Source: Verrucomicrobiota bacterium (GTDB taxonomy: Bacteria > Verrucomicrobiota > Verrucomicrobiia > Limisphaerales > J093). Taken from it: a stretch of DNA of 64,000 nt. The notes beneath the pieces were generated by a model. That model had not been told where the DNA came from and ran no database searches. It was given only the letters and a program-made list of their open reading frames with translations. A program made the translations under genes and the position numbers. Positions 6,836 to 55,676 of this stretch are shown here, one piece after another (position 1 is the stretch's first letter; each line of letters begins with the position of its first letter). The stretch covers positions 1 to 64,000 of the forward strand of contig JAKQDD010000211.1 of assembly GCA_029556615.1 (NCBI GenBank), given 5' to 3'.

Positions 6836-8245
6836 CTACTGAGCCGCCAGCCGGCACGTCAGGCCGTAGAGGGCGTCTGACAGCACGATGCGCCAAGCGG
6901 GGGTATGGGACTCCGGGCCGAGCTCGCGCATGGAGGCCGGTAGCGCGTCCACCTGCTCGCGCACGTACTGGCGCACGTCCTCAGGACGGGAGGTGGGCCC
7001 GACGGGGCGCGTTCCGCGCCACAGCGGCTGGAGCAAAGGGGTGAGACCGCTGGGGGCGGGTTCGTACTCAAGCTGAAGCAGGTCGTAGCCGTCCCCGCGG
7101 TAGCACTGGATCGGTCCCGGCAGGGTCGTCTTGCCCGACCCCGACGAGGTCTTCATGACGGGCACGCCGAAGCTGTTCGACACGACCTTCCCGACCGCGC
7201 CGATCCCCGTGGCCGCGTCGGGCGAGCAGGTGATGTTCTCGCCGACCCCGAAGGCGTCGGCACCGGCCGCGGCGAGCTTCAGCACGCGGTGCTCGTCCAG
7301 CCCGTCCGACACGGTGATCCGGGTCTGCGAGGACCCGAGTTCGTCGAGGAGCGCGCGAGCTCGACGCACGGTCTCCTCGGTGACGTTGGAGTCGATGCGT
7401 ATCCCCTTCAGGGGGCGGCTAGTGTCGCGCGCCGCCTGGACCGCGCGGCGGATCCCCCGCTCAGTGTCGTAGGTGTCGACGAGGAGCACGGAGGCGCTTG
7501 CCTGCTCCAGCATGCGGCGGAACGCGACCCCCTCGGAGTGGTCCCGCGACCCGCCGTCCTCGCACGCCATCACGGCGAAGTGGTCCATCGTGCCCGCCAC
7601 CGGGACCCCGAACACGGAGGCCGCGGCGAGGTTGCTCGTCCCCGCACAGCCCGCGATGTAGGCCGCGTAGGAGGCTCGGACGGCCGCGTCGGGGTCCGTC
7701 CGGCGCTGCCCGAACTCGTAGACGGGCCGGTCCACGCCGTCGAAGCGGGCGGCCATCGCCACCCGTACCGCCTTGGAGGCGACCATCGACATGTGGTTCA
7801 GCCGCGACAGCCAGGGCGTCTCGACCAGCTTGCACTGGAGGAGGGAGGTCCGCACCTGGAGCAGCGGGGTCGCCGCGCAGAGGGGGGACCCTCCCACCAG
7901 GGCAACGTCTCCGCTCGTGCGCCGCGCGATGCCGGCGTGCGCGAGCGTCCCCTCGGGGAGGGCGTCGATGTCGCCCGTGAACCCGGAGATGTTCTCCAGG
8001 TCCCAGATGAGCCGCTCGTCTCGGCCGGGAACGACCTCGCGCAGGAACTGGAGGTCGCGAGGGCGGAAGGTGAGCCGCTCCGCGTGGTCCAGGATCTCCT
8101 GGTACCCGCACGCCACCACGAACCGCCGGTTCCGCGGGAGCCGTCGGAAGAAGAAGCTCATCCACAGGGGCGCGTCCGGCACGTAGTCGCGCAGCGCGAG
8201 GTAGGAGGTGAGCTGGTAGAGGTCAACGCCAAGGGAGGGGTTCAT
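6836..8245 (-). CDS. nicotinate phosphoribosyltransferase-like enzyme (NAPRTase / PncB family)
   Basis: N-terminal DLYQLTSYLA motif typical of NAPRTases. Length 469 aa. Gly-rich phosphoribosyl-binding segments in the C-terminal half. Confidence 0.7.
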   Translation of the reverse strand: MNPSLGVDLYQLTSYLALRDYVPDAPLWMSFFFRRLPRNRRFVVACGYQEILDHAERLTFRPRDLQFLREVVPGRDERLIWDLENISGFTGDIDALPEGTLAHAGIARRTSGDVALVGGSPLCAATPLLQVRTSLLQCKLVETPWLSRLNHMSMVASKAVRVAMAARFDGVDRPVYEFGQRRTDPDAAVRASYAAYIAGCAGTSNLAAASVFGVPVAGTMDHFAVMACEDGGSRDHSEGVAFRRMLEQASASVLLVDTYDTERGIRRAVQAARDTSRPLKGIRIDSNVTEETVRRARALLDELGSSQTRITVSDGLDEHRVLKLAAAGADAFGVGENITCSPDAATGIGAVGKVVSNSFGVPVMKTSSGSGKTTLPGPIQCYRGDGYDLLQLEYEPAPSGLTPLLQPLWRGTRPVGPTSRPEDVRQYVREQVDALPASMRELGPESHTPAWRIVLSDALYGLTCRLAAQ

Positions 8246-27839: not shown

Positions 27840-27914
27840 GCGCTCGTAGCTCAGTCGGTAGAGCGTTCGGAGTAATGACCCGAAAGGCCGCGAGTTCGAT
27901 CCTTGCCGGGCGCG
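27840..27914 (+). tRNA. tRNA gene (anticodon unresolved; hand fold gives a 9-nt anticodon loop)
   Basis: Hand-folded cloverleaf. Acceptor GCGCTCG / CGGGCGC. D-arm GCTC-AGTCGGTA-GAGC. Anticodon stem TTCGG / CCGAA with loop AGTAATGAC. T-arm GCGAG-TTCGATC-CTTGC. No CCA encoded. Confidence 0.6.
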
Positions 27915-27969
27915 CTTATCCTTCGCTGACGATCGTTCCGAGGACGGGCCTGGCCCGTCCTCGGGTACG

Positions 27970-31148: not shown

Positions 31149-31928
31149 CTAGGCGAGGGCCGCGCGCAGCTTGTCCCACAGGGCGGGATGACCGGCCCCA
31201 GCTAGCGCGCTGGCGAACTTCACCTGCTCGTCGCGGTACATGGTGAGGCGCGGGTCCCCGGTGCGCACGCACTCGCGCACGTTGGCCACCCGGTCGGCGA
31301 GCTTGAGACTGGTAGGGTCGAGGTCGGGCCTGGCGTCCCGCAGCGCGAGGATCTTCGTGAAGGCGTCAGCGCTCCGCTCGCGCCGGTTCTTCCCCTGACC
31401 GGTCACGGCCCACACCAGGGCCTCAACGTCGGGGCCGAACTCGGTTCGTACCTCCTCGCGGGTCGTCGGTGTGTCCTCCACCACGTCGTGGAGGTATCCT
31501 GCGGACAGGTGCGGCTCGAATAGCCCGTGCTCCGCAAGGAGCAGGACAACCTCATGGAGGTGCGCCCAGTAGGGGCGATCTCCATACCGCTTGCCCGCGT
31601 CCGCGTGACGCTTCCGGGCGAACTCAGAGGCGCGCACCCGCATGAGGGAGCGACCAAGTAGGCCATCCATATGGGTCGACAGGTCGTCGTGCTGCTTGCG
31701 GAAGTCTGCGAGGGACCGCAGGTACCAGAGCCCGACCGGGTCGGGTCGGACTGCACTGACCTCTAGGCGCGTTCCTACGAACTCCCCCCCACGCTGCGAC
31801 AGCGCCCCCAGGACGAGCAGGGTGTACGCCTCTCGTTTCTCCTCTACGACCGCCTGTAGCACCTCGACGAGGAGGTACATTCGTGCCTCAGAGAAGATCA
31901 CCTTGTCACCACGCTGGAACTGGTACAT
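31149..31928 (-). CDS. HD-domain protein, SpoT/RelA-type (p)ppGpp-hydrolase-like
   Basis: HLHEVVLLLAEHG ... AGYLHDVVEDT matches the His-Asp signature of the RelA/SpoT hydrolase domain. The N-terminal about 115 aa is unassigned. Confidence 0.65.
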   Translation of the reverse strand: MYQFQRGDKVIFSEARMYLLVEVLQAVVEEKREAYTLLVLGALSQRGGEFVGTRLEVSAVRPDPVGLWYLRSLADFRKQHDDLSTHMDGLLGRSLMRVRASEFARKRHADAGKRYGDRPYWAHLHEVVLLLAEHGLFEPHLSAGYLHDVVEDTPTTREEVRTEFGPDVEALVWAVTGQGKNRRERSADAFTKILALRDARPDLDPTSLKLADRVANVRECVRTGDPRLTMYRDEQVKFASALAGAGHPALWDKLRAALA

Positions 31929-45240: not shown

Positions 45241-46125
45241 ATGATCGACATGAACAAGTTGTCGAGGGAAAAGAGGGTCGCGATCCTCTCCACTCTCGTC
45301 GAGGGTTGCTCGATGGCCTCCACCGAGCGCATTAACAACGTGAGCAAGCGCGCCGTAGCCAAGCTGCTCGCCGACATCGGCGCGGTCTGCGACGCATACC
45401 AGGATCGGGTCTTTCGGAACCTCAACTGCAAGCGATTGGAATGCGACGAGCTGCACAGCTTCGTCCAGATCCGGGAAGTACACGTCCCCGAGGAAAAGAA
45501 GGGCCAGCTTGGCTACGGGGAAGTCTGGACGTTCACGGCAATCGACGCGGAGACCAAACTCATCCCGTGCTGGCTCGTTGGAAAGCGCGATGAGGACACC
45601 GCAAGGGCCTTCATTGGGGACTTGGCGGGTCGCCTCGCTAGCCGGGTGCAGCTCACGACGGACGGACTGAAGGCATACGTTGAGGCCGTCGGGGATAGCT
45701 TCGAGGAGGTGGACTTCGCGCAGCTCGTGAAGGAATACAAAGGCGGCTCTCTGAAGCAGCAAAAAAGTGGAAAGGGTCGGTACAGCGGCGCACAGAAGAC
45801 ACTGGTCGCGGGCAGTCCCGATGAGAAGCTGGTCAGCACGTCCTACGTGGAGCGGCACAACCTGACCATGCGCATGGGTATGAGGAGGTTCACCCGGAAG
45901 ACGAACGCCTTCAGCAAGAAACTGGAGCGCCATATGGACGCGCTGGCGCTGTTTTTCTTCCACTACAACTTCTGCCGCATCCACATGACGCTGCGCGTGA
46001 CGCCGGCCATGGCGGCGGGGATCACGGACCACGTCTGGTCCCTCGACGATGTCGTGGCGCTGCTGCCCGACGAGCAGGCACCTCGAAACCTGCTCACACC
46101 CATCAAACCCAGGCGGGCAGCATAG
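45241..46125 (+). mobile_element. IS1-family-like transposase ORF (element ends not resolved)
   Basis: N-terminal HTH. TDGLKAY ... [28 protein letters not shown] ... FHYNFCRIH resembles the InsB-type DDE region. Embedded in a lower-GC block. Confidence 0.55.
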
Positions 46126-50798: not shown

Positions 50799-50999
50799 AT
50801 GTTCTACTGCGCTCGGTGCAAGAAGTTCCTGCTGGTACCGGGGATATGCCCAACATGCGGGAGCGTGGGCCTGGTGCCCGCCGCCGTTCACGAACCGAAA
50901 CCTCGACCCTTCCTGTCGGCGGTCGACCCGCCTCCCGAAGGGCTAATGCTGAGCCCACCTCGACCCCCGCAACTACGCCTCATCAGGAGTTCCTCGTGA
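50799..50999 (+). CDS. zinc-ribbon small protein
   Basis: CARCKK ... CPTCG. Confidence 0.4.
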   Translation: MFYCARCKKFLLVPGICPTCGSVGLVPAAVHEPKPRPFLSAVDPPPEGLMLSPPRPPQLRLIRSSS

Positions 51000-52279
51000 G
51001 TACACAATCCCTACACATGAGGTCGATGGCGGGCATCGACCCGCTACGCGTCCCCCTGCCTCCAGGTACGGAGGTCGTCACGCGGGTCGATCGCGTCGTG
51101 GGGGAGCGCACCGTCAAGGCGGGCGCGCTCGGACGCGTCAAGCACATCGACGGGGATCGCGTGGCGGTCCAGGTCGTCGGGGTCGGCCAGGTTTGGTACT
51201 CGCGCAGCGAAGTGGTCCCCTGCCGCGCCGGCCAGGCGCGCTACGCGGCCCGACGCGACCGCGACTGGACGGCCCTTCACCCCTGCGTGGTGCTGGAGGC
51301 CATCGTGGGTTCACGGGCCTGGGGACTCGCGAACGAGAACTCCGACACGGACCGACGTGGTGTGTTCGTCCCGCCATTCCTATGGACGACGGGCCTGGTC
51401 CCCGCACCGGAGGAGATCGGGTCGATCGACGCGACCTGCACCTACTGGTCGACCCACAAGTTCATCCAGCAGGCGCTGCGTGCCGACCCCAACACGCTGG
51501 AGACACTGTTCGTAGGTGAGGTCCAAACGATCGACGTCATGGGACAGTGGATCCTCGACGCCCGCCAGGCGTTCGTGTCCGCGAACATCTACGGGAGCTT
51601 CGGCCGCTACGCGCTCTCACAACTCAAGAAGATGCAGAAGGCGATCGCACTCATCGATCGCCGACGAGTAGTCCTCGATTGGCTTCGCACGGAACCCTCG
51701 CTCCTGCTGGAGGACGTAGCTCAACGCATCGTCACCGAGTTCCCGGAGGATCATCCAGCGGGTTCAAGCGGGCTGTACGTCCAAGGCAAGCAGTACGTGA
51801 AGGACCTCTACCGGTCGCTCTACGACCAGGGAATCATCGCGGAGAACAGCTTCACGGGGCTCGTGAATTTCGCGGAGCACGCGACGGAGAAGGACCTCGA
51901 CCTTCCACGAGAGCTTCGCCCGAAGAACGCCTACAACCTGCTGCGACTCATCGCGACGGCCACCGAGTGGCTACGGACGGGAGAGGTGAACTTCCAGGTC
52001 TCCGGTAGCCTTCGAGACCGGCTGCTGTCCATCAAGCGCGGCGAGGTCGACCTCGCCGACGTGGTACAAGACGCGGAGGAGACCGCTCCGATGCTCGACG
52101 AGGCCCGCCGCCACACCAAGCTCCCCGAGCACCCGAACCTGCGCGCCGCCGACGCCCTACTGCACCGCATCAGTCAGGAGGCCGCGCGTCGCTGGGTGAG
52201 CGGAGAGGTCTCGGCGTTTGGCCTACACGCCCCGCCACCCCCGATGCTCGAGTGGGACGATGCCAAGGAGGACGCATGA
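50996..52279 (+). CDS. pol-beta-superfamily nucleotidyltransferase (paralog A)
   Basis: IVGSRAWGLANENSDTDRRGV is a GS-x9-DxD NTase motif. Downstream KNAYNLLRLIATATEWLRTGEV helical segment is shared with paralog B. GTG 50996 after CAGGAG. The ORF-track frame from 50252 is a junk extension. Confidence 0.6.
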   Translation: MSTQSLHMRSMAGIDPLRVPLPPGTEVVTRVDRVVGERTVKAGALGRVKHIDGDRVAVQVVGVGQVWYSRSEVVPCRAGQARYAARRDRDWTALHPCVVLEAIVGSRAWGLANENSDTDRRGVFVPPFLWTTGLVPAPEEIGSIDATCTYWSTHKFIQQALRADPNTLETLFVGEVQTIDVMGQWILDARQAFVSANIYGSFGRYALSQLKKMQKAIALIDRRRVVLDWLRTEPSLLLEDVAQRIVTEFPEDHPAGSSGLYVQGKQYVKDLYRSLYDQGIIAENSFTGLVNFAEHATEKDLDLPRELRPKNAYNLLRLIATATEWLRTGEVNFQVSGSLRDRLLSIKRGEVDLADVVQDAEETAPMLDEARRHTKLPEHPNLRAADALLHRISQEAARRWVSGEVSAFGLHAPPPPMLEWDDAKEDA

Positions 52280-53058
52280 CGCGCGGCAACGCCTACGAGC
52301 TACTTACTCCCCACCAGGCTAGGGTCGTGGAAGCCCTGGTCCGAGAGGAGGTGGCGCGCCACCTCCCGGTGGTCGTCGCGCTGTCCGGGTCGCACGCTTA
52401 TGGGTTCCCTTCCCCCGACTCGGACGTTGACGTGAAGGCAGTCCACTTGGACCCAACCGCCCTGTTCCTCGGGCTTACTCCGAAACCAACCTCCGACAAC
52501 GTCGTCTCGACGCGAGAGGGCATCAAGATCGACTACACCTCCAACGAGCTCGGCGGGGTGCTCCAGGGCGTGCTTCAGGGGAACGGAAACTACATCGAGC
52601 GCCTGCTCGGGGGGCTGTACTTCAGCCCCTCCAGACTGCTCGACGAGATGCAGGGCATCCTGCGGCGAGCGTTGTCCCGCCGGGTCGCCCACCACTACCG
52701 GGGGTTCGCCCGCACCCAGGCCGAACAGGCCGGGCGCACCTCGGTCAAGAGCCTGCTCTACGCATTCCGCACCCTACTCACCGGGGCACACTTGCTACGA
52801 ACGGGGGAGATCATCCTGGACCTCCCCACGCTGCTGCGCCGCTACGGGTTCGACGAGGTTCAGTCCCTCGTCGAGAAGAAGCGCGCCGGTGTTGATCTGA
52901 TCGAGGCGTCCGAGGGGGACTACTGGCGGATCTGTACGCTGCCTCGCGCGTTCATGGCCTTGGAAGACGCGCGTGAGGGCTCCCCGCTCCCGGTCGAACC
53001 TCCCAACGAGGTCGAGGTGAACGACTGGCTCGTGAGAACGAGACTCCTAACTGCCTAG
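52276..53058 (+). CDS. pol-beta-superfamily nucleotidyltransferase (paralog B)
   Basis: ALSGSHAYGFPSPDSDVDVKAV motif. KSLLYAFRTLLTGAHLLRTGEI segment. AAGGAGG RBS. ATGA overlap with paralog A. Confidence 0.6.
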   Translation: MTRGNAYELLTPHQARVVEALVREEVARHLPVVVALSGSHAYGFPSPDSDVDVKAVHLDPTALFLGLTPKPTSDNVVSTREGIKIDYTSNELGGVLQGVLQGNGNYIERLLGGLYFSPSRLLDEMQGILRRALSRRVAHHYRGFARTQAEQAGRTSVKSLLYAFRTLLTGAHLLRTGEIILDLPTLLRRYGFDEVQSLVEKKRAGVDLIEASEGDYWRICTLPRAFMALEDAREGSPLPVEPPNEVEVNDWLVRTRLLTA

Positions 53059-53083
53059 AGCCGCCTGGGTATCGTAGGCCACG

Positions 53084-54586
53084 ATGCCCGTGATAAAGCG
53101 CACACGCAGGTACGTCTACAACACCCCAAAAATCGCCCGCTGGAGCGACGTGTCCTTGCTCACCCGCGCCGTCCAGCGCGTGGGGGGGATCCACGACGCG
53201 ATCAGCTACTTCACCAACGGTAGCACCCTCTCCCTTCCCCTGCCCCTCCAGGCGCTGCTGGTGTGTCAGCGATTTACCGGACCTGCCCGCGCGGGCCTCC
53301 TCCGGTACCTGACGGACAAGTGCCGGAAGATCCCCCTCCTGTCGGGCGGCGGGAGGTTTCGATCACAGAACACCTACAGCGACAAGCTCAAGCGCGACGT
53401 CACCTTCGGGTCTCTCGACGTGTCGGAGGAGCCCGCCCTCTACATCGTCAACTCGATCCCCGTGCTGGTCCGCCAGGAGGGCTACGGGATCGACGAGGCG
53501 AAGGGGATACAGATCTACTTCCCGCGGGGCTTCTTCTCGACGGAATACTTCCCCCAGCAGGCGATCGACCACGCACCGCGACACTCGTCAGAGATCAACC
53601 GGTTCGCGGTCATCCACGTGGGGGCGGAAGACAACGACGACAACAGCGACGACCCCATACGGGCGGCACGTCCACGGAAGCAGTACGCCAAGACGATGGA
53701 TGGGGATGGGATGATGACGCTGGAGGGAGAGCGCATCCTGTACGAGCATGGGGTGTCTCCCGACGACATGCGGGACCCTGAGCCCTGCGAGGGAGTCGAC
53801 GACCTCGCCCTCACCCCAAGCGCCAAGATCGCCGTTCAGTTCGCGCGCGCCTGGTTCCAGGCGCGGGACGACTACGCGCGCCGCCGCATCATCTGGCGCT
53901 GCGGGATGTTGTTTGAGGGGCCTCCGGGGACCGGAAAGACCGCCCTCGCGCGCGCCCTCGCCTACGAGATGGGAGTGCCCATCCACGTCTTCCACCTGAC
54001 GAGCCTGAACTCGCGGTCCTTCGAGTCTGGCTGGCAGGACATGGTCGAGAGGACCCCCGCGATCGCGCTGCTCGACGACTTCGACCGCGTGTTCGAGAAC
54101 GGCCGGCGGGTCACGGACGAGGGCCCGTCCTACAACCTGGTCCTCCAGGCGCTATCCGGCGTGCAGGAGGTCTCGGGCCTCATGGCGATCCTCGCGGTCA
54201 ACGACATCCACAAGGTGGACCCGACGATCTTCGACACGAAGTCGAAGTCCCGGTTCGGCCGGCGCGTCACCGTGCGCGCCACCTTCGCCCTCCCCACAGA
54301 GGATCAGCGACGGAGCATCGCGCGACGTCTCCTCGACGACTTCCCCACCGAAGTGGTCGAGCGGGTCGTGCGTGAGGGGTGTGAGGACTCTGGGAAGCAG
54401 TTCGTCGACCGGTGCGCGGCGGAGGTCATCGACCGCCTCCAGCACGGAGCCGGCGTACAGGAGATCGATCTCTCCGCGGAGAGTCCGGTACCCCGTCGGG
54501 GACGACCGAGGAAGGACGCCCCGCGGGCTCGTCAGGCTTCCCCCAAGGAGAAGAAGGAGAAGATGTCCGAGCCCGCGGAACGATAA
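53084..54586 (+). CDS. classical AAA+ ATPase with unknown 280-aa N-terminal domain
   Basis: Walker A GPPGTGKT, Walker B IALLDDFD, second region of homology AVNDIHKVDPTIFDTKSKSRFGRRV. Basic C-terminal tail. Confidence 0.7.
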   Translation: MPVIKRTRRYVYNTPKIARWSDVSLLTRAVQRVGGIHDAISYFTNGSTLSLPLPLQALLVCQRFTGPARAGLLRYLTDKCRKIPLLSGGGRFRSQNTYSDKLKRDVTFGSLDVSEEPALYIVNSIPVLVRQEGYGIDEAKGIQIYFPRGFFSTEYFPQQAIDHAPRHSSEINRFAVIHVGAEDNDDNSDDPIRAARPRKQYAKTMDGDGMMTLEGERILYEHGVSPDDMRDPEPCEGVDDLALTPSAKIAVQFARAWFQARDDYARRRIIWRCGMLFEGPPGTGKTALARALAYEMGVPIHVFHLTSLNSRSFESGWQDMVERTPAIALLDDFDRVFENGRRVTDEGPSYNLVLQALSGVQEVSGLMAILAVNDIHKVDPTIFDTKSKSRFGRRVTVRATFALPTEDQRRSIARRLLDDFPTEVVERVVREGCEDSGKQFVDRCAAEVIDRLQHGAGVQEIDLSAESPVPRRGRPRKDAPRARQASPKEKKEKMSEPAER

Positions 54587-54587
54587 G

Positions 54588-55277
54588 TCAGGAGGTGAGG
54601 ATGGGCGTGAGGCCCGTGACGCACGTGTTCCCGATGCGCGCCGCCAGCAGGTAGCCCCCAACGGCCTGGAAGTTGCCGAAGGAGGAGAACCCAGCGTTGG
54701 CGGCCTCGACGAGCACTCCGTTGAGCCACACGAGCAGGGCGGCCTGGTTGGCGATCGGGGGGTTCGGGCTGGACGCGAAGATCCCGCTCGGAGTCGTCAC
54801 CGTCACCCGTACGGTCCCGCCAGCGATCGGGTAGCTCCGACCCCCAAGGAACGCGTCGAACAGGACCGGTGCGCAGCAGGCCCCCGAACGAAAGTTCGAC
54901 CAGCCACCTGGGCACGGGTCGTAGCAAGGCACGTAGCACCGCGCGCAGCGGCACCCAGGTAGACAGCCCATGTTGCGCTCCCTCTCCACGTAGGTAGGCC
55001 CACAACCACACGGCGTGCGCCCACAGCGGCACCCGTAGTTGTAGGGGCCGGGATGACCGGGATGACCGGGATGACCGGGATACCCGTGGCCCCCCGCGCC
55101 GTAGCCTCCGCAGACGCAAGGATGTCGGTTACACCGACAACTCCACTGGGGCGGCTCGCAGTAGACGGGTGGGCAGTAGACGGGCGGGTATGCGGGGTAG
55201 CACGGCGCACACTCGTCTCGCCTCCGACGTGGAGGTTCGCAAGGCACGCAGCCACGATTTGAGTTGTTACGTCCCAT
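54588..55277 (-). CDS. Cys/Gly/Pro-rich protein with GHPGHPGHPG repeat
   Basis: 229 aa with about 30 Cys. A 9-bp tandem repeat lies at about 55050-55085. The first 18 nt are near-identical to the start of 34897..35538 (MGRNNS). Confidence 0.5.
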   Translation of the reverse strand: MGRNNSNRGCVPCEPPRRRRDECAPCYPAYPPVYCPPVYCEPPQWSCRCNRHPCVCGGYGAGGHGYPGHPGHPGHPGPYNYGCRCGRTPCGCGPTYVERERNMGCLPGCRCARCYVPCYDPCPGGWSNFRSGACCAPVLFDAFLGGRSYPIAGGTVRVTVTTPSGIFASSPNPPIANQAALLVWLNGVLVEAANAGFSSFGNFQAVGGYLLAARIGNTCVTGLTPILTS

Positions 55278-55361: not shown

Positions 55362-55676
55362 CTACTTGACCCGGTAGACGACGGGCGAACAGCCCCCGCA
55401 GCACGCGCTGTTGGCGGCCGGAGCCGGAGCGAGGGCGACCGGCGCCCCGAGGTTCATGGCCGCCTGGAAGAGCGCCCAGGAGGACGCGATGGAGGGCGCG
55501 ACCAGGTAGGGCGCGACGTTCACCACGGGAACTGCGGGAACGTAGGCCGGAGCCACGTAGGCCGGAGCCACGTAGGCCGGGACGTAAGCTGGACCCACGT
55601 AGGCAGGGGCCATCGCGGGGACCAGCGGGGCGAGAACAGTTGGGGACGAGCAGGTTGAGCACGACATGGGCACCAT
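55362..55676 (-). CDS. small repetitive protein (PAYV repeats, C-terminal CCGGC)
   Basis: 15-bp tandem repeats at about 55535-55600. Confidence 0.4.
   Translation of the reverse strand: MVPMSCSTCSSPTVLAPLVPAMAPAYVGPAYVPAYVAPAYVAPAYVPAVPVVNVAPYLVAPSIASSWALFQAAMNLGAPVALAPAPAANSACCGGCSPVVYRVK

Follow-up and report, generated by a model that had tools for sequence, protein, structure and literature searches.

Proteins of the RlaP family (PF10127, 'RNA repair pathway DNA polymerase beta family') are nucleotidyltransferases (NTases) that have been characterised only recently. In a December 2025 preprint, two RlaPs from Pseudomonas were reported to add one or two nucleoside monophosphates (NMPs) or deoxynucleoside monophosphates (dNMPs) to RNA 3'-OH ends, with a preference for Mn2+ and without activity on DNA or protein (PMC12776372). 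In a mimic of cleaved tRNA, the 3' end was their favoured substrate, and a tRNA short of one nucleotide partly regained aminoacylation after RlaP action followed by ligation (PMC12776372). NrdC.11 of phage T4 is a member of this family, and a survey of jumbo phages found RlaP to be the most prevalent repair NTase, with a distribution that tracks RNA ligases (PMC7824862). Here, we analysed a stretch of 64,000 nucleotides from contig JAKQDD010000211.1 (assembly GCA_029556615.1, Verrucomicrobiota bacterium), hereafter the window, in which two overlapping NTase genes, named RlaP-A and RlaP-B below, are followed by the gene of an AAA+ ATPase and by a convergent gene for a Cys/Gly/Pro-rich protein. 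An initial annotation, made from the DNA sequence of the window, had proposed these four genes as a candidate novel module, possibly one of nucleotide signalling. Our analysis does not support this proposal: both NTases are assigned by their sequence profiles to the known RlaP family, they form a translationally coupled operon that is conserved across Myxococcota, and the AAA+ ATPase looks like a co-directional neighbour with no conserved link to them.

Two RlaP-family nucleotidyltransferases with intact catalytic residues

All four open reading frames (ORFs) proposed by the initial annotation were recovered with the same boundaries, and those of RlaP-A, RlaP-B and the AAA+ ATPase were reproduced by independent gene calls on metagenome contigs encoding an identical AAA+ protein. 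RlaP-A (50996-52279, plus strand, 427 aa) has a GTG start with AGGAG 6 nt upstream. RlaP-B (52276-53058, plus strand, 260 aa), a minimal RlaP-family NTase, starts at 52276 within AAGGAGGacgcATGA, where its start codon overlaps the stop codon of RlaP-A as ATGA, and the overlap is preceded by an AAGGAGG ribosome-binding site, in agreement with the overlap and the strong ribosome-binding site described earlier. Rfam, promoter and terminator scans of the region yielded nothing exceeding background.

In Pfam profile searches, in which the cut-off for PF10127 is 23 bits, RlaP-B matched this family over the entire profile length (92.2 bits, 5.7e-26) and RlaP-A matched it over residues 98-215 (64.2 bits). 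PF10127 had been among the candidate families named by the initial annotation, and it is also present in all listed homologs of RlaP-A and of RlaP-B. In addition, RlaP-A matched the phage family phrog_388, annotated as 'nucleotidyltransferase', at 6e-38. Neither protein matched any NCBIfam or PADLOC model, and single-sequence searches of the PDB with each of them returned nothing useful.

BLASTP aligned the two proteins with 28% identity over 101 aa (E 5e-7), indicating that they are distant paralogs, and a second aligned segment lies in the helical domain and covers the K-x-L..R..L.TGE helix, so that both the paralogy and the common helix noticed in the first reading hold. The GS...DxD active-site motifs noticed there are conserved in orthologs as well. 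The catalytic set comprises G105-S106, D117xD119 and D145 in RlaP-A and G38-S39, D50xD52 and D86 in RlaP-B, and these residues are invariant or nearly so across 48 RlaP-A and 54 RlaP-B orthologs, with the exception of S39 of RlaP-B, which is variable.

An AF2 model of RlaP-A (pLDDT 89) consists of an NTase sheet followed by long helices. The NTase core is preceded by a Tudor/KOW/SH3-like barrel (about residues 24-76; nt 51065-51223, plus strand) and followed by a long helical domain (about residues 198-402). The window NTases have the GS/DxD/third-Asp set of RlaPs and apparently also their order of NTase domain and helical domain. Unlike described members of the family, they are two divergent and translationally coupled paralogs, and RlaP-A carries the extra N-terminal barrel and a longer helical domain, reaching 427 aa against about 250 aa for the family profile. 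Moreover, neither of them lies within an RtcB or RNA-ligase operon, either in this element or in Myxococcota.

Structure comparison brought up two other activities for the pair. The first rank in the structure search was taken by HalB of the Hailong system, a defence NTase that makes oligodeoxyadenylate, and RlaP-A and RlaP-B might accordingly be thought to make a nucleic-acid or nucleotide product, for example protein-primed or free oligo(deoxy)nucleotides, serving as a signal or a decoy. HalB ranked first only because the library contained no RlaP structure, and the likeness is generic, being that of an NTase with a helical domain at 14% identity. HalB and the window proteins have no sequence family in common, the latter falling into RlaP; nothing points to protein-primed DNA synthesis here; PADLOC gave no match; and no HalA-like membrane effector of the channel type adjoins the pair. 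A HalB-like product is therefore improbable in our estimate. ANT(4'), LinB, ANT(6) and DrrA were also among the structural neighbours, which would suit nucleotidylation of a small molecule, such as an antibiotic in the manner of ANT(4')/KNTase or LinB, or of a protein by AMPylation, with a role in resistance or regulation in myxobacteria and in the element. Many antibiotics are made by myxobacteria, a point that counts for a small-molecule substrate; family and distribution evidence lends little to this activity, as it does to the HalB-like one, and we assign nucleotidylation a very slight probability.

A conserved operon of RlaP-A and RlaP-B across Myxococcota

When one genome per species was scanned, 363 stretches with RlaP-A-type relatives were matched, from which 80 loci were kept, all of them Myxococcota-type records, including Sorangium, Myxococcus, Enhygromyxa, Chondromyces, Minicystis and many metagenome-assembled genomes of Myxococcota. 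Among about 2000 homologs of RlaP-A, the best 120 are full-length (about 417 aa) and 53-57% identical, and the named genomes in this set are all Myxococcota (Labilithrix, Pendulispora, Polyangiaceae). RlaP-B has about 1800 homologs, with 47-53% identity in Myxococcota.

By tblastn and clustering, an RlaP-B ortholog was found directly 3' of RlaP-A in about 58 of the 80 loci. Of 52 bacterial pairs with adjacent genes, 41 have ATGA, GTGA or TTGA as the last four bases of the RlaP-A gene, indicating that the translational coupling is ancestral and not a quirk of this element. When the flanking genes of all 80 loci were clustered, RlaP-A and RlaP-B alone proved to be conserved, and a search for conserved partners of the bacterial pair found none beyond genus-level synteny. 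Consistently, Pfam annotation of the neighbours at nine Myxococcota loci gave unrelated housekeeping genes, with no ligase, RtcB or Pnkp. Together, these data establish the pair as a translationally coupled two-gene operon and a conserved chromosomal unit across Myxococcota. The conservation of the pair on Myxococcota chromosomes suggests that the element probably acquired it from a myxobacterial host lineage, and capture of a host-type operon from such a lineage is the most likely origin.

In two Myxococcus genomes, a 100-aa protein with the MJ1316 'RNA cyclic group end recognition' domain is encoded two genes 3' of the pair (L084:9180-9482, minus strand, and also L090). This gene is missing from the other 78 loci.

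The AAA+ ATPase has no conserved link to the RlaP pair

The AAA+ gene (53084-54586, plus strand, 500 aa) starts 25 nt after the stop codon of RlaP-B. The proposal of a single module holds that the NTases and the AAA+ ATPase, possibly together with the Cys-rich protein, constitute a new system for nucleotide signalling, signal sequestration or nucleotidylation, in which the ATPase remodels or regulates the NTases. The local layout is compatible with it, the three genes being contiguous and co-directional, with the ATGA overlap, the 25-nt gap and no predicted terminator, and L009 and L011, which are syntenic relatives, keep the arrangement.

The distribution of the genes, on the other hand, argues against such a module. 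Contigs carrying AAA+ members of about 71% identity (P0002 and P0005) are syntenic with the window across the whole neighbourhood, holding RlaP-A, RlaP-B, the AAA+ gene, the convergent Cys-rich gene and a DNA methyltransferase, and it is only in such close syntenic relatives of this element that RlaP-A, RlaP-B and the AAA+ ATPase occur together. In none of the 80 Myxococcota loci was a relative of the AAA+ ATPase found. AAA+ members of 49-55% identity (P0008, P0010 and P0007) lie on other large contigs with no RlaP nearby, two of the three contigs having GroES/GroEL genes in the vicinity, and a member of 26% identity is surrounded by ordinary bacterial genes. Proteins of 416 and 428 aa encoded 5' of distant AAA+ relatives were considered as divergent forms of RlaP-A and were ruled out, with BLASTP E values above 1. 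The neighbourhood search thus confirmed co-occurrence of the trio in close syntenic relatives and found none in the Myxococcota loci or around distant AAA+ genes. Since the RlaP pair occurs without the ATPase and the distant ATPases without RlaP, the two appear to have separate histories.

The AAA+ genes of 49-55% identity have neighbours of their own. On the 3' side, an ORFan of 1142-1143 aa follows the AAA+ gene in all three (L005:9441-12872, L007:9397-12828 and L013:2125-5553). On the 5' side lies a 155-aa DSPc-family phosphatase in two of the three (L005:7356-7823 and L007:7379-7846), or else small ORFs. No homolog of the 1143-aa ORFan was found in the window. For a conserved partner of the AAA+ ATPase, this arrangement offers a stronger candidate than the RlaP genes do.

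Comparison with CBASS type III leads in the same direction. In that system, which combines a CD-NTase, a HORMA protein and a Pch2/TRIP13 ATPase, an NTase gene is likewise located near an AAA+ gene. Nevertheless, the window NTases are not CD-NTases, having no SMODS or PADLOC match, neither a HORMA protein nor an effector is present, and the linkage of NTase and AAA+ is absent outside this lineage. RlaP-A and RlaP-B also gave no match to MenT/AbiEii (AbiEii/DUF1814) in Pfam, NCBIfam or PADLOC, and the earlier statement that the locus corresponds neither to CBASS type III nor to MenT/AbiEii is therefore sound. In PADLOC models, the AAA+ protein scored 33 bits for the defence ATPase IetA, a similarity that might be cited in favour of a module, and just 20 bits for TRIP13; these similarities to IetA/IteA and TRIP13 are weak and restricted to the AAA core, on the P-loop region. 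With NTases of a known family whose conserved neighbourhood is the pair without the ATPase, a Bcs1/YjoB-like rather than TRIP13-like ATPase (see below), a Cys-rich ORFan that is convergent, and little support from distribution or family evidence, the module is largely refuted by gene distribution already, and we consider it highly improbable.

The AAA+ ATPase resembles Bcs1 and YjoB

The ATPase matched PF00004 at 6e-14, and its Walker A (GPPGTGKT, residues 279-286) and Walker B (LLDDFD, residues 329-334) motifs are invariant in the family, in line with the classical type assigned to it at first. The initial annotation had described its N-terminal domain as belonging to no recognisable family, and this is where the structural evidence differs. 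A Foldseek search with the AlphaFold model returned Bcs1 first (E 5.5e-17, 444 columns), a mitochondrial folded-protein translocase, followed by YjoB (478 columns), a soluble chambered chaperone of Bacillus subtilis. Alignments to Bcs1 and YjoB extend over 385-478 columns, compared with 250-287 for p97-type proteins, although the rmsd is high and the pLDDT, 69 overall and about 90 in the AAA core, is 60-85 in the N-domain. The structural alignment places a Bcs1-specific-like domain at about residues 53-180. When the family profile was compared with the PDB, the highest score for a single stretch was that of Bcs1 (99 bits), whereas Cdc48/p97 reached about 55 bits per domain, so that Bcs1 is the best match by both sequence and structure over the N-domain and the AAA core.

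An ED Walker B motif, in which Asp replaces the catalytic Glu, has been described for Bcs1 and YjoB (PMC9565160). The window ATPase likewise has Asp at the position of the classical catalytic Glu, and the distant family members P0013 and P0015 have ED at Walker B. Taken together, the alignment with Bcs1 and YjoB over both domains and the Walker B Asp suggest that the N-domain, as modelled, is most likely of the Bcs1-specific type. Unlike Bcs1, the protein showed no match to Pfam BCS1_N, and inspection of its N-terminal sequence revealed no obvious transmembrane segment. It therefore looks like a soluble chambered chaperone or translocase-like ATPase similar to Bcs1 and YjoB. The family is very small: among 5.8 billion proteins, about 15 clusters cover the N-domain, and all of them are metagenomic.

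A probable role in RNA end repair

On the basis of family membership and the conservation of the pair, we propose that RlaP-A and RlaP-B are RlaPs of the myxobacterial type that probably serve the repair of RNA or tRNA ends, with the AAA+ ATPase acting independently and the Cys-rich gene being specific to this lineage, so that neither belongs to the NTase unit. As members of their family, the two enzymes would most likely extend RNA 3'-OH ends by one or two nucleotides without a template. In this way they could replace what host nucleases have removed from tRNA or other RNA, before religation by an RNA ligase encoded elsewhere on the element. Such a function may amount to repair or to counter-defence, and it fits one option listed in the initial annotation, the modification of host tRNA or RNA. 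The conserved overlap of start and stop codons suggests that RlaP-A and RlaP-B would be made in fixed proportion and may act together or in sequence, and the Tudor/KOW/SH3-like barrel of RlaP-A may bind RNA.

An RNA ligase of the type this model needs is indeed present on the element. A near-identical contig from this element encodes a PF09414 RNA ligase (L095:20976-21395, minus strand; 46.7 bits on a partial ORF, cut-off 27) about 8.4-8.8 kb beyond the start of the window, next to a 291-aa protein with an RNase H/RVT_3 domain and near a DDE transposase. The element thus has the ligase, though about 60 kb from the RlaP pair and not in an adjacent position. RlaPs of jumbo phages are likewise found on large mobile elements that also encode an RNA ligase. 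The window further carries a PTH2-type peptidyl-tRNA hydrolase (14715-15113, plus strand), a tRNA-Ile with anticodon AAT (27840-27915, plus strand) and a phosphohydrolase with an HD_4 (RelA/SpoT-type hydrolase) domain (31149-31928, minus strand), which are translation-maintenance cargo and count in favour of RNA repair. The AAT anticodon of this tRNA is unusual, since bacterial tRNAs for Ile normally have GAT or modified CAT anticodons.

Several observations weigh against RNA end repair by the pair. Some lineages can dispense with RlaP-B, which is absent beside RlaP-A in about a quarter of the loci. Its ortholog is frameshifted just after the catalytic DxD region, at 'KAVHIDP', in two assemblies of a single project (L011:7151-7979 and L012:951-1776), which reflects either recent pseudogenisation or a common assembly error. 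The pair is also distant from the biochemically assayed RlaPs, no RNA-repair genes adjoin it in any genome examined, and no gene for a ligase, RtcB or Pnkp was found within the 64-kb window.

The conservation of the pair across Myxococcota without an RNA ligase partner leaves room for a more speculative proposal, which we regard as rather doubtful: RlaP-A and RlaP-B may represent an undescribed stand-alone two-enzyme system, in which the paralogs, as a heteromer or one after the other, would add different defined nucleotides to a specific RNA 3' end. Such a system might perform ligase-independent repair or tailing, or possibly make a HalB-like product, and might have been captured by the element against an RNA-targeting defence of the host. 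By analogy, the split CC-adding and A-adding tRNA nucleotidyltransferases, in which two cooperating paralogous Pol-beta NTases rebuild an RNA 3' end, offer a possible model for the coupling of two RlaPs. Those enzymes (class II CCA) belong to a different NTase family, however, and nothing here points to CCA specificity.

The Cys-rich gene and its neighbours

The convergent gene downstream of the AAA+ gene (54588-55277, minus strand) encodes a Cys/Gly/Pro-rich ORFan of 229 aa. Gene callers annotate only 127 aa, whereas the full ORF runs from the first ATG. In L001, L003, L009 and L011 the ORF is open at 220-232 aa from the same ATG, and both this ATG and a purine-rich stretch upstream of it are conserved in relatives. 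Every indel among relatives is in frame, and comparison with L009 over the N-terminal part gave 23/23/60 substitutions by codon position. The gene, whose GHPG repeats had been noticed at first, is thus real over its full length. It contains perfect in-frame tandem repeats of 9 nt x 3.8 (GHP) and of 15 nt x 2.1 (PPVYC x2), and a C-terminal domain of about 100 aa is conserved in the protein. A search of 1.84 billion representative proteins gave only five weak relatives, each matching the C-terminal part, and there was no Pfam, PHROG or PADLOC match. As the gene is convergent and is absent from both the bacterial RlaP loci and the distant AAA+ loci, there is no evidence that it belongs with either, and its product is a lineage-restricted ORFan outside the NTase unit. 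L001 and L003 each have one unit of the GHP repeat (55048-55081) more than the window, a polymorphism in repeat number between elements that are otherwise near-identical.

A second odd small gene (55362-55676, minus strand; about 101-104 aa, no family match) shares the strand of the Cys-rich gene and lies 5' of it. Its product has a conserved MSCSTCSS start and a CCGGC motif at the end, and 15-nt in-frame repeats within the gene encode PAYVA (55540-55612), where most of the indels relative to L009 and L011 are located.

On the other side of the locus, a zinc-ribbon-like ORF of 66 aa (50799-50999, plus strand; CxxC...CxxC, MFYCARCKKF...CPTCG) ends with a TGA that overlaps the GTG start of RlaP-A. 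Its protein sequence is kept in L011, where the stop/start overlap is ATGA. The ORF is missing 5' of RlaP-A in L009 and in bacteria and was left uncalled by metagenome annotators; it is confined to this element lineage and lies outside the bacterial operon.

The element carrying the locus

Identical genes were found on metagenome contigs of 132-331 kb, the 331-kb contig being k141_840356 (ENA ERZ27257442). The window has a G+C content of about 65-66% and consists mostly of ORFans, the recognisable genes including those for an SF2 helicase, an AlkB-like dioxygenase, a DnaJ-domain protein, two DNA methyltransferases, a TnsA-like nuclease, an IS-type transposase and an NAPRTase (6836-8245, minus strand). 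Between 42000 and 48000 the G+C content drops to 0.59-0.61, and this region encodes a helix-turn-helix protein and an IS1/IS240-like DDE transposase (45241-46125), suggesting an insertion within the element.

When the whole window was swept with Pfam and PHROG for phage hallmark genes, nothing that is clearly a capsid, terminase, portal or tail gene was found. In blastn and tblastn searches of 50,697 phage records, the AAA+ ATPase and RlaP-A gave distant AAA and NTase matches and RlaP-B gave none, and IMG/VR scans with the AAA+ protein and with the RlaP-A alignment found no relatives. Because no clear virion gene is present, the phage-like nature that the initial annotation gave to the element is unproven and stays an assumption.

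Implications

The present analysis turns a candidate immune-signalling module into members of a known and recently characterised family, a case in which the adjacency of genes gave a misleading picture on a compact mobile element. It also brings to notice Bcs1/YjoB-like ATPases of a very small family that is known from metagenomes alone and is carried on large phage-like elements. For Myxococcota, it points to a widespread and unstudied operon of coupled RlaP paralogs, now found on a mobile element as well. For the RlaP family, this operon offers a tractable test of whether RlaPs can function in pairs and with no ligase dedicated to them.

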